DNA of 21,136 bases from Myxococcota bacterium (lineage in GTDB: Bacteria > Myxococcota_A > Bradymonadia > UBA7976 > UBA1532), in the NCBI GenBank assembly GCA_036337435.1, contig JAYZEG010000039.1:1-21136 (forward strand). The letters run 5' to 3'. Made by a program: the position numbers. Position 1 is the stretch's first letter, and the number at the start of each line of letters is the position of its first letter. Of the stretch, positions 9,001 to 18,000 are shown one piece after another.

Positions 9001-12000
9001 AGATGAGTCATCTAAACAGACGACGGAGTTTTCAGAGCAGCTATCGCGGCATGCTTGGCCCGCGCCCTGACATTGCCCCCCAGAACAGACCTGCCCTGCT
9101 GGACAGACTTCAGTATCGGACCAACGCGTACATTGTCCGTCCAGGACACAGCGAGAAAATGCTGCATCTCCTGTACAGCGGACAGTGCCTTCATCACATT
9201 GATCGCTACATCGCCCGGGCTCGCATCGCACCCGACCCGGTTGGCACACTTCGCCGACTGGACACGGCTGTGTTTCGCCCCAGACTCCACATTCACCTTG
9301 GCCCCTTTCACAGGTTTGCAGACCAGAGGGACGACACTGTGTTTCGCCCGGTGTACACGCCGATTCACAGGACCGCGTACAGATTCCGTCCTGGCAAACG
9401 CCGCTGATACAGTTCCGGGGCACCGTCCACTGTCCCCGGTCATTGCACAGTTGTGTCTTGTTTTGCCCGACGACGCATTTACGGCTGCCTGGCGAACATT
9501 CTTGGTCAGCACCACCACCCGGCCCCTGTCCGAGGCCTCCGTCGAGGCCCGATGGCAAGTCTCCGCTGACGCAGGCGACAAAACAGATGGATATCAAGGC
9601 TAATACGTACCGCATGTCATCACGATACTGCATGCCGCCGGTCTTTGTCTCACTTTTCGCACCACAGCCTTCGAATACCTCATACGGGGGTTGAAAACCG
9701 GCTCTAATTGGTACCAAATGTGAATAGTAAACGCATGAGTTTGGGGACATAAAATATGAAATCGAAGAAAGTAGGGGTCATTCTTGCTGGGTGTGGTTGG
9801 TTAGACGGTGCAGAGATTCAAGAAGCCGTCTGTACTTTACTCGCTCTGGATCAACGCGGTGCAGAGACCATCATCATGGCGCCAAACAAAGAGCAAATGC
9901 ACGTCGTCGACCATTTGGCCGAAGCACCCGCGGAGGGCCAGACGAGAAATGTCATGATCGAATCTGCCCGTATTGCTCGAGGCGCTATCGTGGATATCGC
10001 TACCGTCGATGCCGGAGATTTAGATGCGCTCGTCATCCCGGGTGGATTTGGCGCGGCAAAAAATCTTTGTAGTTTCGCGACGGAGGGTCCAGAAATGAGC
10101 GTGGACGATCACGTTGCAAACCTGATCAGAGCCATCCATAGCTCAGGCAAACCGTTAGGCTTCATTTGCATTGCCCCGGCCATCGCAGCCAAAATACTGG
10201 GTCCAGATCACGGTGTCGAAGTTACAATCGGATCCGATGCGGGCACGGCTGATGCAATCCGCGCCATGGGAGCCCAGCATGTCGACACAAATCCGGGAGA
10301 AATTCACGTCGATGAAACGAATAATGTGATCTCCACACCGGCTTACATGGTCGGGCCATCCATTGCGCAGGTTCATGCGGGCATCGATCGACTGGTCGGC
10401 ACGGTCCTCGATCGTTGCTAGACTTCTTTGGATTCAATCATTACCCCTTGACCGAGACCAATCAACTCGAAAGCAAGAAGGCGCAATGACCGGTAGACAT
10501 CAGAGGAAATTAGACCACATCGACCATTGTGCGGATGACAGGGCGGTTTTCAAAAGCCACGAAGGGTTATTTGAAGACGTCACCTTGATACACAATGCCT
10601 TGCCTGAATTAGCGATGCATGAAATCGACCTGACGACACCGCTCATCAATTCAACCCTTTCAGCGCCTTTGATGGTGACAGGCATGACCGGGGGGCCAGA
10701 TAAAGCGGGCGAGATCAATCGTGGTATTGCACAAGTCTGCGACCGTCTGGGACTCGCGTTCGGCGTGGGGTCCCAAAGATTGCTCACCGATACACCAGAT
10801 GCTGTGCGGACCTATTCCGTTCGTGACATTGCGCCCAGCCTGGTTTTATTTGGTAATCTTGGCGTCAACCAAGCGCGTGACCTCGGGCCAATTAAGGTGG
10901 CCGAATTGATGAAAAGCATCGGTGCCGACTATATGGCGATTCACCTCAACGCAGCTATGGAATTATGCCAACCCGGGGCCGATGCTGATAGCGATTTTCG
11001 CGGCGGATTTGATACCATCGGTCGCGTCGTAGACGCACTGGATGGGCGTGTCTTGGTGAAGGAATGTGGCTGTGGCATTGGGCCAAATCAATTTCGCCGA
11101 TTGGTCGAACTGGGCGTACCGGCCATCGATGTCAGTGGGTCTGGAGGGACCAGCTGGGTCAAGGTCGAGGCATTACGAGCCACGGGACAATTGGCTCAGC
11201 TTGGGGAGACGTTTGCTGAGTGGGGCATACCGACCCTGGCGGCAACTGGGCTCGCAAGTCGAATTGGGGGCGCACAAATTATCTCATCTGGCGGTGTCGA
11301 TTCCGGATTGAAAGCCGCAAAGGCTCTGGCTTTAGGTGCGACGGTCGCTGGCAGTGCAAGACCTGTTTTGCAAGCTTTTTTGAGAGGTGGAGAAGAAGAC
11401 GCTACAGCATTTTTAGAGACGGTGATCGCAGGCCTTCGAACGGCTATGGCTTTGACGGGATGTCGGCGTCCCGCTGAGTTGGCCCAGAGGCCCAAATTAC
11501 TCGGTGGGCGCCTGCAGCAGTGGCTGGCTCTGTCTGAGACCACCCCATGACCGACTCTCGTATTCCCGGTTTTTATCGATTGCCGATCGACCGTCGACAT
11601 GCAGAACTGAAGAATAGACTCGGACTAACCGATGATGAATTACGGATTCTTTCCGATGGGTCGAGTCTCGAACCTGCACGCGCTGATAAGATGGTGGAAA
11701 ACTGTGTCGGTGTGTTCGCACTGCCGGTTGGCCTTGGGTTAAATTTTCAGATTAATGACCGCGATTATATCGTTCCGATGGTGGTTGAAGAACCCTCTGT
11801 CGTCGCCGCGGTCAGCAACATGGCAAAACTGGTCAGACAAAACGGTGGCTTCAGTGCTGATGCAGACCCGGGTATTATGATCGCGCAGGTTCAAGTCGTG
11901 AATGTAGCCGATCACAACCAAGCAGCAGCAGCACTCACGGGGGCTGAGGCTCAGATTCTGGCTCTGGCCAATTCGAAGAATCCAAATATGATCGCGCGCG

Positions 12001-15000: not shown

Positions 15001-18000
15001 GCATGGTAGAGACCTCCATGACATGCCCGAGGGCCTCAATGTCTCGGTTCTCGATGGCTTGACGCGCTCTCGATAAGTGTTCTGGGTGTTGCTTGACCCA
15101 CGCTCGGTAGTACGGACTCGTCGCTTGAGTGATGGCCATGCCCTCTCTGGATGAGGTTTTCTTCGGTGCCTGAGTCGCTTGCGCGACGACCATTCGAATC
15201 GGCCAATCTGTTCCATTCCAGAGCGATTTGACATGACCGGAATCGCGCTCCAGTTCAACCAAGCCTGGCAAGAGCGAGCGTGGTGCCGAACCAGAACCCC
15301 GCCTCACCAAATCGAGGAAGGTTGGATTATGGACCAGCTGTTTGACTGGGAGCCCAGCGGCATGCCATGTGGCTGTAGCCAGTGCAGCTGTTCCGCTCGC
15401 TGAGCTGGCTAGTCCCGACGCGGTTGGAACCCGATTCGTACTGCTGATTGTCGCAAAAGAATCTATAGACGCAATGCGGCGGACTTCATCGACGAGTTGG
15501 TTAACACGGGTGTCTTCACGCGCGGTTCCATTCAGGATGAAGACATTCCGGTCATGATTATCGCTAAAGTGAACGGTCGTCTCAGTCGTAAACGTATCGA
15601 GGGTCAAAGACAGGCTGCCAACAGCCGGTTGATTGAGTTCAGAGTTCCTCTTTCCCCAGTACTTAATCAGAGCAATATTAATGCCGGCTTGTGCCTTTAC
15701 TTTCTTATGATTCGGCATGGCGGCGCGTACATTAAAGCGAGAGTGGTTGGCTACCAACCAACGCTTCTATTTCATCGATTTCTTTGGGGATTGCAGCGGT
15801 CAGATTTTCCGGGTCACCGGCCGTAATTACGATATCATCTTCGATCCGGATACCAATCCCTCGATAGCCCTCAGGAACATCCAAGTCCGCTGGAGATATG
15901 TAAATTCCAGGCTCTACCGTCAAGACCATTCCGGGTTCGAATGACCGAGGTGATCCATCACGTTGATATTCACCGACGTCATGGACATCCATGCCAATCC
16001 AATGGCTTGTCCTATGCATGTAGAAACGTCGATACGATTCATTTGCGATCGCTTCCTGAACCGGACCCTCTAGAAGATTTAGGGCGATGAGTCCCTCCAC
16101 CAGTGTCCGAACAGCTATGTCATGGACAGCATCGATGTTACCGCCGACAACACATGCGGCAATACAGGCTTTTTCAGCCTTCAGGACCAACTCATAGATG
16201 TCTCTTTGTTCATCGGTAAAACGCCCGCTGACGGGCCAGGTTCGCGTCACATCCGATGCGTAATACTCTTTTTCACAGCCCGCATCGACCAAGACCAGTT
16301 CGTTGGCTTCAAGCTCTCGTGTGCCGGCCCGATAGTGCAAGACACATGCGTTTGGTCCGCTCCCGACAATGGATGGATACGCATTTCGCGCGGACCCTCG
16401 TACGCGCCATTCAAACTCCATTGCGGCTTCGATTTGGTATTCCCGTGCTCCAGGGACTGTGACGGCCATGGCTTTCTTGTGGCCGAGCGACGTCAATGCA
16501 GCAGCCCGACGCATGGTTTCTAGTTCGGATGCATCCTTGATGAGCCGCATTTCGTGGAGCATCGGCGACACGTCAGACATCCCAGTCGGTACGTCATTAT
16601 CCCGCCGACGTGATCGCTTCGCACGCGTCACTGCATCGATGACCATTTGATCGTTCTGCTCACGGTCGTTTCGAGCGAGGTCATAATAGACGTGGTCAGC
16701 ACCCATCATAAGTTCATGCAGTTTTTGTTGAAGACTTTCGATGGGATAGGCGACATCAACTCCCAGTGTCTTGGGCGCGGCTTCGACTCCTAATCGAACA
16801 CCATCCCAAATTTCTCGTTCCACGTTGCGACTTCGAAGAAACATGATCGACTTTGGTTGCTCGTGCCCTCTGGCGTCTAAAACGAGCACACAGTCTGGCT
16901 CTTCAAAACCGCTCAGATAGTAAAGGTCTGAATCCTGCCGAAAGTCGTGATGGACGTCGTCATTGCGAATCGATTCCTTCGGCGCACAGAAAATTGCGAT
17001 GCCTCCGGCAATTTTTTTAATCAGTTTTTGTCTTCGTTCGGCGTACATTTCCGATCTCGTTTTGGCAATCTGCATCCAGAATAGCGTCAATAGCAGTCTC
17101 TTAGCACGACGAAAAGTGTCACTCGCTGGACTTAGACGATAATTTTTCGATCGCTGTGATAAGTGCTGGTCCGAATTTAGCCCATTTGGCTGCCCCTAAA
17201 CCATGAATATTTAAAAATTCAGATTCATTGGTCGGTCGCTTTAGCGCAAGCTGTTCTAGGCTTTTATTGTTAAAGATCGAATAGGCTGGGACTCCGTGGT
17301 CTTTAGCGAACTGCCGGCGAAATGCTTTGAGCCCAGCAAGCATACCATGCTGTTGAGATGAAACCGCTTTGCTATTCTCAATTTGGGGGGATAGTTCCGA
17401 CCGTGCGTGGCACCAATCTTGGCTGAGGCCCACCACGTCTTCGCGACCCTGCATGACTTCCCAGCCAATGGGTGAGATGGCGATGCGAGGATATCTGCCT
17501 CCCACGAGCATGGCCCATCCACGGTCAACGAGTGCTTGTAGCAACTCAGAGCATCTCTTCTGACCTACTTCTTTCAGCAGCCCAAATGTAGTCAGCTGAA
17601 CCAGGGTTGTATCTTCGATACCACTGCGCTTCCCGACGAGCATTTTTGTCACTTTGGTAAGACCGAAGTGCCCCTCGGCTCGTGCGATGCCCGCCAGTGC
17701 TTTTCTCACAAGGATTCGGTTTGCCTCAGAAAGTGGAGGTGCTTTTTCAGAGAGTGCCTCACACCGATCGCATCCCGGGCAGACCTCGGAATCGATATCT
17801 TCTCCGAAATAACTGAGTATGAAGTCGTGTCTACATCCACTTTCGTAGGGAAACCCGGCCATCACATCTAAGCGGTTCAGTTCTAATCGTCGTCTATTTT
17901 CGAAGGTCTCAAAATTAATTCCCAGTTCATCAAATGACGCTGGGCTGTGGGCGGATACCCGCCAGGTATCTGGACCGATTGGGAAAATGCCCCCACAGCG

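Follow-up and report, generated by a model that had tools for sequence, protein, structure and literature searches.

Bacteria of the class Bradymonadia probably make their isoprenoids through a mevalonate pathway that has no HMG-CoA synthase (HMGS) and is fed from leucine, a reading which we hold likely on the basis of sequence comparisons. HMG-CoA would be drawn from leucine, not from acetyl-CoA, and the pathway would run from HMG-CoA onward. In the text of PMC6107057, whose Fig. 2 and supplements may show the gap, thiolase, HMGS and HMG-CoA reductase are well conserved in all pathway carriers and HMGS counts as the pathway's committed entry. Here, a class of predatory bacteria without both standard isoprenoid starts appears to use leucine, and its reduced family f8 has kept the leucine enzymes and lost every other recognisable use for them.

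We analysed a 21,136-nucleotide stretch of DNA (the window) from one genome of the class (G000) and searched 113 class genomes, belonging to families f1–f9, with a profile search that scores only candidates passing a loose first look. The mevalonate cluster of the window is intact by profile search from HMG-CoA reductase through IPP isomerase, and the six genes which the first-pass annotation had placed at 9756..15718, elbB to mvaD, all match their models:

9756..10421, + strand: elbB, ElbB-family glyoxalase (DJ-1/PfpI fold); NF008747, 301.9 bits against a cut-off of 180
10486..11550, + strand: fni, type 2 isopentenyl-diphosphate isomerase; TIGR02151, 316.9 against 281.3
11547..12824, + strand: class II HMG-CoA reductase; TIGR00532, 394.9 against 259.95
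12824..13771, + strand: mvk, mevalonate kinase; TIGR00549, 233.1 against 163.05
13755..14756, - strand: pmk, phosphomevalonate kinase (diverged GHMP kinase); best model TIGR01220, E 9e-32
14741..15718, - strand: mvaD, diphosphomevalonate decarboxylase; TIGR01240, 246.2 against 171.35; PF22700 and PF18376

With 110.5 bits against an NCBIfam cut-off of 165.7, pmk is the only cluster gene below its cut-off. It faces the elbB–mvk genes, its 3' end runs 17 bases into mvk, and its placement between mvk and mvaD is kept in genome G108 and in f4 and f6 loci. The fni gene starts at an ATG at 10486 with an AAGAAGG site ahead of it and overlaps the reductase gene by 4 bases, while the mvk start and the reductase stop overlap by 1 base; the ATG of mvaD lies at 15718, in a frame that is open from a TTG at 15757. 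The reductase motifs EEPSV, DAMGAN, THNKG, GNDWR and GHM, whose residues we take to be catalytic, are all present. In the genus elbB is the first gene of the cluster, a place it also holds in G108, and no elbB match adjoins fni at loci L074–L078; any role of ElbB in the pathway is putative. Scanning for promoters and terminators turned up nothing of use. In one seawater metatranscriptome 6% of the sampled words were present, and three short contigs mapped to the elbB, fni and reductase genes with 0–2 differences (such contigs cannot show transcription); a second run held no contigs on these three genes. The operon does not extend across the class as first described: four single-contig genomes, G001, G002, G003 and G033, have the reductase by itself, and the mevalonate genes of f8 are scattered.

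The wide spread of the reductase and the scarcity of HMGS were both confirmed. Reductase is found in 105 of the 113 genomes, G000 included (104 had been reported), and PF01154 (HMGS) in 11 at E≤0.1, with none in the four genomes of the genus. About seven of these matches are stand-alone HMGS-type genes and four lie in polyketide beta-branching-type clusters and are presumably PksG, so that HMGS is missing from about 98 of the 105 reductase-positive genomes. No archaeal-type HMGS exceeds its cut-off in the 113 genomes. Profile searches of G000 found no HMGS, and an unfiltered run of a custom HMGS profile over its 19,118 ORFs gave only two weak matches (E 2e-4 and 9e-4), which sequence and context label as a thiolase and a type III PKS-like protein. 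The reported absence of the MEP route also held when judged by IspG, which was detected in 9 of 14 controls and in none of the 113 class genomes. TIGR00748 does find two HMGS-like/OB-fold fusions adjoining thiolases in G050, both of which PF01154 misses; its other matches, in G093, G095, G104, G110 and G111, are FabH- or KAS III-like and were rejected as HMGS.

The G050 fusions indicate that the models are not fully sensitive, and an unrecognised, non-orthologous HMGS (KAS III-like or of the thiolase fold) might use acetyl-CoA, leaving the leucine genes catabolic only. Most families keep thiolases, which are present in G000 and G108, together with a complete catabolic route that includes the lyase, and G003 and G033 carry a FabH-type gene some 5 kb away from the reductase. 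However, this gene passes the fabH cut-off and was rejected as a hidden HMGS, G000 has no FabH-like match beside its two weak thiolase-fold matches, and five f8 genomes contain neither a thiolase nor a KAS III domain (0/5 for each), so that neither substrate nor scaffold is evident there. We therefore regard a hidden synthase as unlikely. Nor is the loss of HMGS specific to the class, as had been supposed. Only 83 of 401 phylum genomes give a PF01154 match, at a limit that detects only 4 of 14 controls. Of 80 genomes taken at even steps from the ~263 PF01154-negative ones outside the class (HMGS-less by PF01154 only), 51 carry a reductase, which that limit makes an upper estimate. A reductase without HMGS is frequent throughout the phylum and not special to the class.

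In the leucine route, leucine would pass through 2-oxoisocaproate to isovaleryl-CoA, using branched-chain dehydrogenase in aerobes and Vor in f8. An acyl-CoA dehydrogenase would convert this to 3-methylcrotonyl-CoA, a biotin carboxylase system would form 3-methylglutaconyl-CoA, and a LiuC-type hydratase would yield HMG-CoA. For most families HMG-CoA would be a branch point, with the lyase producing acetoacetate and acetyl-CoA and the reductase taking a share for IPP; we infer both the direction and the size of this flux, and prey as the source of the leucine. The carboxyltransferase would be the myxobacterial LiuB type (type A) in f1 and f3 and a second, uncharacterised type, type C (MCC/GcdA fold), in f2, f4, f6, f7, f8 and f9. 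The LiuB type is found in 63 of the 113 genomes and type C in 37, after 14 of 51 matches were dropped as type A genes at the same coordinates (30–33% identity). The two types are mutually exclusive, and one or other is present in 100/113 genomes and, of the 98 genomes with a reductase but no stand-alone HMGS, in 88; neither is found in 13/113, including G050 and G056 (97–98% complete).

Among 30 LiuB-type loci, a LiuC-like hydratase adjoins in 23, HMG-CoA lyase in 16, and a LiuA-type gene (at least 59% to L085) stands directly behind liuB in eight, none of them in this genus. The best PDB match of the G108 hydratase is M. xanthus LiuC (5jbw, E 1.4e-67), which pins down an enzyme that the earlier annotation had left loose; at E≤1e-62 the hydratase profile finds 0/3 in f2 and nothing in 6 of 17 f8 genomes. 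By eye, the type A loop DSAGARITDQ.EMFPGRRGAG and the adjoining dehydrogenase agree with the LiuB and LiuA homologues printed in the supplement of PMC7321100. The predicted LiuB-type model (pLDDT 73.7) has a PCC-like domain order, with TM 0.72–0.75 to PCC vs 0.40 to MCC, and the type groups with PCC in the tree and has Ala at Phe191. Profile searches of G000 detected none of liuB, liuC and lyase, nor a clear orthologue of IVD or LiuA (43% at best); its own liu operon appears to lie in an assembly gap.

The lyase previously suspected in kin is real, with NF004283 over its cut-off in about 85–86 of the 113 genomes, often adjoining thiolase and hbd genes. This distribution would suit a reversed lyase, making HMG-CoA from acetoacetate and acetyl-CoA under the pull of the reductase. 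Against such reversal, cleavage is the favoured direction of HMG-CoA lyase, the gene lies directly ahead of liuC–liuB in a catabolic arrangement, and no HMGL-like protein is found in the five f8 genomes and no lyase in f5 or f9; we consider it extremely unlikely.

The methylcrotonyl-CoA carboxylase (MCC) named in the first-pass annotation, the C74 pair of G000, was the wrong candidate. The beta pocket of an MCC is defined by Phe191 together with an insertion of three residues (PMC4673880), both of which the pair lacks. It groups with geranyl-CoA carboxylase (GCC; AtuC/AtuF, PDB 5ikl, PMC4673880) in a quick version of the carboxyltransferase tree and was rejected as a canonical MCC. Its beta subunit shares the GCC pocket loop, to which it aligns gap-free with Gly at Gly162, whereas its clade is sister to the AtuC-like proteins and it has no atu neighbours. 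All 28 parsed proteins among the best 30 C74-type loci have the Gly and no insertion, and among 10 weaker loci only G049 and G082 have the canonical MCC loop. By its pocket the C74 pair would be a GCC-like carboxylase, and the leucine carboxylation step is better assigned to the LiuB type or type C, whose own substrates we infer. The route proposed earlier from leucine to HMG-CoA stands, with far more support than before through the LiuC hydratase, the lyase and the evidence of f8 below, and the carboxylase assigned to it does not.

A C74 clade with the GCC pocket, present in 47/113 genomes, could still supply 3-methylcrotonyl-CoA from prey terpenes, and isovalerate or prey iso-odd fatty acids could be further C5 entries. 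GCC-type loci with dehydrogenase and hydratase neighbours occur in the class, and beta-oxidation genes flank the liu genes. The clade is found, however, in only 3 of 43 f3 and 0 of 17 f8 genomes and was not found in the single-contig G001, G002, G003 and G033, and f8 is without beta-oxidation enzymes yet keeps VorB. We judge these entries highly unlikely as the explanation; they would complement supply from leucine and not exclude it.

Type C has the domain arrangement of MCC-beta (PDB 3u9r, 4q0g, 8j4z) and GcdA (1pix, 3gf3), and its predicted model gives TM 0.76–0.85 to these vs 0.37–0.40 to PCC. The substrate half is closest to MCC-beta, with the MCC loop length. Unlike either, type C has only ~30% identity to them, Ala at Phe191 (so in the class's own proteins and at 74 of 80 loci outside it, the other six not being parsed), its own clade and its own operon. 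Outside the class this operon contains biotin carboxylase and a 180-residue carrier in 68–74 of 80 loci, and the biotin carboxylase is also there in f2, f4 and f6, which fits a carboxylase; a sodium-pumping glutaconyl-CoA decarboxylase would be expected to have a membrane beta subunit and an operon lacking biotin carboxylase. The f8 gene stands alone, and G066 has a sodium-pump beta-like gene adjoining a carrier domain. At two outside loci type C lies behind an HMGS/thiolase/DUF35 set, one of them also with a hydratase and an IVD-like gene. The type C family occurs in at least 594 genomic stretches.

Family f8 is a natural test of the leucine idea, and the idea passed. All f8 genomes are fragmented MAGs, of which five, 93–99% complete, were tested in depth. 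VorB is over its cut-off in all five. Each has exactly one acyl-CoA dehydrogenase, with best PDB matches that are all isovaleryl-CoA dehydrogenases (IVD), and in alignment to 4o5m all five have the IVD-type Glu on helix G, which is presumably catalytic in IVD, and none at the MCAD position. A metagenome scan with the f8 dehydrogenase found one distant locus. Each of the five also has exactly one hydratase (best matches 3kqf and AUH) and mvaD, with mvk in 4/5 and pmk in 4/5, and type C is present in 16/17 f8 genomes. Weak matches gave a biotin carboxylase in G066 only and, in just G069 and G074, a carrier-like protein. HMGS, FabH and HMGL-like proteins (lyase, LeuA; 0/5) were not found in the five genomes, nor was any credible match to 3-hydroxyacyl-CoA dehydrogenase. 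With thiolase, HMGS, lyase, LeuA and FabH all missing, leucine looks like the only isoprenoid source of f8, and with the lyase gone the IVD, carboxyltransferase and hydratase appear to have no role other than isoprenoid synthesis.

Mevalonate, HMG or prenyl intermediates might instead be scavenged from prey or medium and completed by the kinases and decarboxylase, the class II reductase being oxidative or dispensable. Pseudomonas mevalonii catabolises mevalonate via reductase and lyase; with a lyase, the reductase here could run the same way, and its best model is named 'degradative'. The predators, moreover, have multiple auxotrophies and import fatty acids (PMC7460792). Yet the reductase of the window is translationally coupled to fni and mvk, the ten f8 reductases examined keep the catalytic motifs, and 16/17 f8 genomes are without lyase and so without an exit for oxidised mevalonate. 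Scavenging is, in our view, very unlikely. Taking the leucine explanation further, we lean towards a joint reading: f8 would make all its isoprenoids from leucine via Vor, IVD, type C, LiuC-like hydratase and reductase, with thiolase, HMGS, lyase, leucine synthesis and MEP all lost; feeding by leucine without HMGS would be normal in the class and probably in much of the phylum; and type C would be a third widespread methylcrotonyl-CoA carboxylase family.

The mevalonate pathway has been stated to be independent of branched-chain amino acid breakdown, since HMGS is its entry (PMC9636800), and cultured Bradymonabacteria lack leucine synthesis (PMC7460792). If our explanation is true, many predatory bacteria make quinones and the carrier lipid of the cell wall at the expense of prey protein. 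This would explain concretely why they depend on prey and account, in a way open to testing, for the link already known between predation and mevalonate, and pathway reconstructions that score these genomes as incomplete would be wrong. The finding also points to an uncharacterised carboxylase family (type C) and a compact leucine-to-IPP route. Cultured Bradymonadales strains exist.

The leucine shunt itself is already known in trypanosomes and myxobacteria, and the Bacillus yng genes may be a parallel. No account of a mevalonate lineage free of HMGS, or of obligate HMGS-free leucine use, came up in a literature search outside which most subscription papers lie. The mevalonate pathway of Bradymonadales is already in print (PMC8237579), in passages that make no mention of missing HMGS, and Fig. 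1 of that paper may show the gap. As in the bacterial DPMD-type pathway reported for Bradymonadales (PMC8237579, PMC6107057), reductase, MVK, PMVK, DPMD and IDI-II are present and MEP is not found; unlike it, the class largely lacks HMGS, and f8 lacks thiolase too. In Trypanosoma brucei, according to part of PMC5993337, IVD, carboxylase and hydratase similarly feed HMG-CoA to the reductase, for sterols, but a two-step acetyl-CoA bridge is kept as an alternative, whereas the bacteria described here have neither bridge nor MEP. The same sequence of IVD, carboxylase and hydratase to HMG-CoA and reductase appears in the flow from branched-chain amino acids to mevalonate proposed for Calditenuis in an excerpt of PMC12979851. 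The closest likeness in gene order is to M. xanthus liuABC and its LiuC/MvaS branch (PMC5389471, PMC7321100, PMC9548883), with a LiuC-like hydratase, LiuB type and LiuA type in the same order, and a myxobacterial sesquiterpene is labelled by dimethylacrylate and not by acetate (PMC7321100). M. xanthus, however, retains MvaS and is able to work from acetyl-CoA towards isovaleryl-CoA, whereas the bacteria described here have no synthase, so that the leucine direction would be their only supply.

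The mevalonate genes that the first-pass annotation had placed in the window are borne out, together with their coordinates:

9756-10421, plus strand: elbB, over the NCBIfam cut-off
10486-11550, plus strand: fni, over the NCBIfam cut-off
11547-12824, plus strand: class II HMG-CoA reductase, over the NCBIfam cut-off
12824-13771, plus strand: mvk, over the NCBIfam cut-off
13755-14756, minus strand: pmk, under the NCBIfam cut-off, assigned by best model and position
14741-15718, minus strand: mvaD, over the NCBIfam cut-off

The minus-strand pmk-mvaD pair faces elbB-fni-reductase-mvk on the plus strand, within which fni and the reductase gene overlap by 4 bases and the reductase gene and mvk by 1 base. 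Gene order is identical in G108, a 100% complete genome of the same genus. The operon does not extend across Bradymonadia as had been claimed: among the matches listed, other loci of family f1 read fni-reductase-mvk and those of f4 and f6 mvk-mvaD-pmk-reductase, the reductase gene stands isolated from the pathway genes in four single-contig genomes (G001, G002, G003 and G033), and the mevalonate genes of f8 are dispersed. A second, 5'-truncated reductase copy lies 4.7 kb behind the full gene in G002 (L066:7243-14191), with a similar neighbour repeated too, a pattern as after tandem duplication. M24 peptidases (prolidase-like, aminopeptidase P) are encoded on both sides of the window's cluster, at 5455-6780 (plus) and 15732-17090 (minus), and pepP and recQ run co-directionally into mvaD-pmk both here and in G108. 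Divergent from elbB is a gene for a Cys-rich, probably exported protein of 540 residues (8128-9750, minus) with no Pfam or NCBIfam match. The minus-strand stretches 2366-4872, 329-1480 and 19449-20922 hold a response regulator and kinase pair, PhoB/PhoR-like by its sequence, as well as an LPP20-like lipoprotein and two proteins that match no family.

HMG-CoA reductase is present in 105 of the 113 class genomes (56/58 among those of high quality), and the claimed absence of both HMG-CoA synthase (HMGS) and the MEP route is upheld for nearly all of the class and, judged by IspG, for the class, respectively. IspG was found in 0/113 genomes, with matches in 9/14 controls. The HMGS N-terminal domain, PF01154, matched at E<=0.1 in 11/113, and none of these proteins reached a curated HMGS cut-off. 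Seven are encoded by stand-alone HMGS-type genes (G016, G044, G045, G047, G049, G060 and G101); the other four (G020, G023, G027 and G093) sit among ketosynthase, reductase and hydratase genes, a setting which we take to be of the polyketide beta-branching type. An archaeal HMGS model matched 14/113 genomes at E<=1e-12, none over its cut-off, the extra matches being FabH- or KAS III-like proteins plus two HMGS-like/OB-fold fusions in G050. The fusions (L370:5651-8331 and L371:6512-9177; 484 residues each) precede thiolase-family genes and are not picked up by PF01154, and in one of them the usual catalytic motif lacks its Cys. When the 19,118 ORFs of G000, the genome of the window, were searched unfiltered for HMGS with a profile of the 11 class proteins, the best matches, at E 2e-4 and 9e-4, proved to be a thiolase and a PKS-like protein of type III. 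G000 also has no FabH-like protein by a class FabH query, in agreement with the fatty acid synthesis gaps reported for these predators. From the PF01154, archaeal-model and G000 profile results, stand-alone HMGS is therefore missing from about 98 of the 105 reductase-positive class genomes. We regard a hidden HMG-CoA synthase as quite unlikely. The loss of HMGS reaches beyond the class: PF01154 was found in 83/401 genomes across the phylum, and the reductase in 51 of 80 outside genomes picked in even steps from about 263 that were HMGS-negative by PF01154 alone.

HMG-CoA lyase is encoded in 86/113 class genomes, and its presence without the synthase points to another source of its substrate. 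We think it likely that HMG-CoA for the mevalonate pathway derives from leucine in this class. Leucine would be converted through isovaleryl-CoA, 3-methylcrotonyl-CoA and 3-methylglutaconyl-CoA to HMG-CoA, from which the enzymes of the window would produce IPP and DMAPP. Competition for HMG-CoA between lyase and reductase would be expected in most families. The leucine would be external, because cultured members are described in a passage of PMC7460792 as being without leucine synthesis.

The first-pass annotation had also favoured leucine, by way of methylcrotonyl-CoA carboxylase (MCC); the leucine origin stands as likely and the f8 gene set fits it, but the carboxylase named, on contig C74 of G000, does not:

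C74:8670-12299: carboxylase pair with the pocket of geranyl-CoA carboxylase (GCC), from pocket loop alignment and tree

MCC is distinguished by a three-residue insertion and Phe191 and GCC by Gly162, and GCC activity on methylcrotonyl-CoA is very weak, according to the relevant part of PMC4673880. The C74 beta subunit scores about equally as MCC and GCC, aligns to GCC without gaps and has Gly at the pocket position; Gly and a GCC-like loop recur in 28/28 parsed loci among the best 30. Its clade is the sister of AtuC-like proteins in a quick tree. No atu neighbours surround the pair. The clade occurs in 47/113 class genomes, but in only 3/43 of f3 and 0/17 of f8, and with its GCC pocket it is therefore ruled out as the general supply of HMG-CoA. 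Elsewhere in G000, a protein of 1,786 residues with biotin carboxylase and carboxyltransferase similarity (C37:90584-95944; counterpart in G108) is perhaps a single-chain acyl-CoA carboxylase.

For the leucine step, two other carboxyltransferases are the stronger candidates. The first, of LiuB type, belongs in G108 and G107 to an operon with genes for thiolase, hbd, crotonase, acyl-CoA dehydrogenase, mutase small subunit, HMG-CoA lyase and hydratase. The best solved relative of the G108 hydratase is LiuC of M. xanthus (5jbw, E 1.4e-67). The LiuB type is found in 63/113 class genomes (24/27 other genomes of f1, 39/43 of f3, none in the remaining families), and of 30 loci 23 have the hydratase adjoining, 16 have the lyase nearby and 8 have a LiuA-type dehydrogenase downstream. 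Compared by eye, its loop and the dehydrogenase match the homologues of LiuB and LiuA that PMC7321100 prints in its supplement. Against this role, its predicted model has a PCC-like domain order and it groups with PCC in a quick tree; unlike canonical MCC, it has Ala at the Phe191 position. The whole lyase-hydratase-LiuB block was not found in the 87% complete assembly of G000. It most likely sits in the gap between contigs C29 and C86, because the genes on either side of the G108 block, about 25 kb apart there, map to the first bases of these contigs (78% and 93%). G000 does encode several E1 proteins of 2-oxoacid dehydrogenases and, on C28, a biotin carboxylase accompanied by a carrier of 71 residues.

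The second, type C, has AccD1, GcdA and MCC-beta as its best solved relatives and, after removal of 14 cross-matches to LiuB-type genes, is present in f2 (3/3), f4 (5/5), f6 (10/13), f7 (1/1), f8 (16/17), f9 (1/1) and also in G021, which belongs to f3 but has no LiuB. No genome has both types and 100/113 have one; as kin are not independent, this exclusion counts as two families versus six and a single switch, and should not be read as statistical. The substrate half is nearest to MCC-beta, with the same loop length and with Ala in place of Phe191, and the predicted model (pLDDT 80) gives TM 0.76-0.85 to MCC-beta/GcdA and 0.37-0.40 to PCC. Biotin carboxylase and a 180-residue carrier flank type C in f2, f4, f6 and G021; at 80 loci outside the class (myxobacteria, planctomycetes, acidobacteria) they accompany it in 68 and 74 cases, most of these loci being without liu neighbours. 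At two of the 80 (L291:3230-11248 and L369:3995-11509), archaeal-type HMGS, thiolase and DUF35 genes precede biotin carboxylase and type C, with a dehydrogenase after; in one of the two, a hydratase gene precedes this set and an IVD-like gene follows it. The hydratase is present in L291, where the carrier is fused to the carboxyltransferase.

Family f8 (17 genomes, 2.6-5.9 Mb) serves as a natural test. All 17 have the reductase, diverged and with intact motifs in 10/10 examined; HMGS, IspG, LiuB and the C74 clade are each absent (0/17), and the lyase occurs in one. Synthesis by the lyase in reverse might be read from its frequency in the class, yet with this distribution in f8 it is the least probable source. 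Scavenging of mevalonate appears very unlikely. Five f8 genomes, 93-99% complete, were followed more closely, and encode mvaD (5/5), mvk (4/5), pmk (4/5), VorB over cut-off (5/5) and type C. Each has exactly one acyl-CoA dehydrogenase, with the IVD-type Glu and isovaleryl-CoA dehydrogenases as its top four solved relatives, and exactly one hydratase, nearest to 3kqf and AUH (11/17 f8 genomes match the hydratase profile at E<=1e-62). Other C5 sources could enter the same route; we give them a slightly smaller chance than scavenging. No thiolase, KAS III domain or HMGL-like protein (lyase, LeuA) was found in the five (controls 14/14, 11/14 and 14/14), and the matches to 3-hydroxyacyl-CoA dehydrogenase were limited to three in G066, all of them weak and short. 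Because beta-oxidation, primer use and the lyase are missing, HMG-CoA for the reductase would be the one evident product of dehydrogenase, carboxyltransferase and hydratase. Apparently, then, f8 holds a stripped, anabolic form of the leucine shunt with an uncharacterised carboxylase. Within f8, biotin carboxylase was seen in G066 only and a carrier-like protein in G069 and G074 only; G066 additionally encodes a pump-beta-like protein and a carboxyltransferase resembling that of PCC. From PFOR and Vor only, we infer an anaerobic life. VorB of G068 (L254:521-1795) and G069 (L255:1081-2367) is extended at its N-terminus by some 80 residues of acidic character. Four f8 genomes had no further Vor subunit called beside VorB.

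Across the class, and probably outside it as well, the leucine shunt thus appears to be the only way into the mevalonate pathway. The shunt itself is known; its apparent role as sole entry would be new, and our literature search found no account of an HMGS-free mevalonate lineage. Passages of PMC8237579 report that Bradymonadales have the mevalonate pathway; its later trees include Bradymonas and Lujinxingia, the portion of its HMGS tree covered here does not, and the text covered makes no remark on this. The first three steps are called well conserved in all carriers in a passage of PMC6107057, and the link between predators and mevalonate is cited in sections of PMC9548883 and PMC9803151. 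A leucine-to-mevalonate flow is proposed for an archaeon in part of PMC12979851. The shunt is described as shown in T. brucei in an excerpt of PMC5993337, and as indicated by feeding in a myxobacterium in the corresponding part of PMC7321100. T. brucei retains the acetyl-CoA bridge and the myxobacterium, on that account, retains MvaS, whereas most genomes of this class are, by genes alone, free of a stand-alone HMGS.
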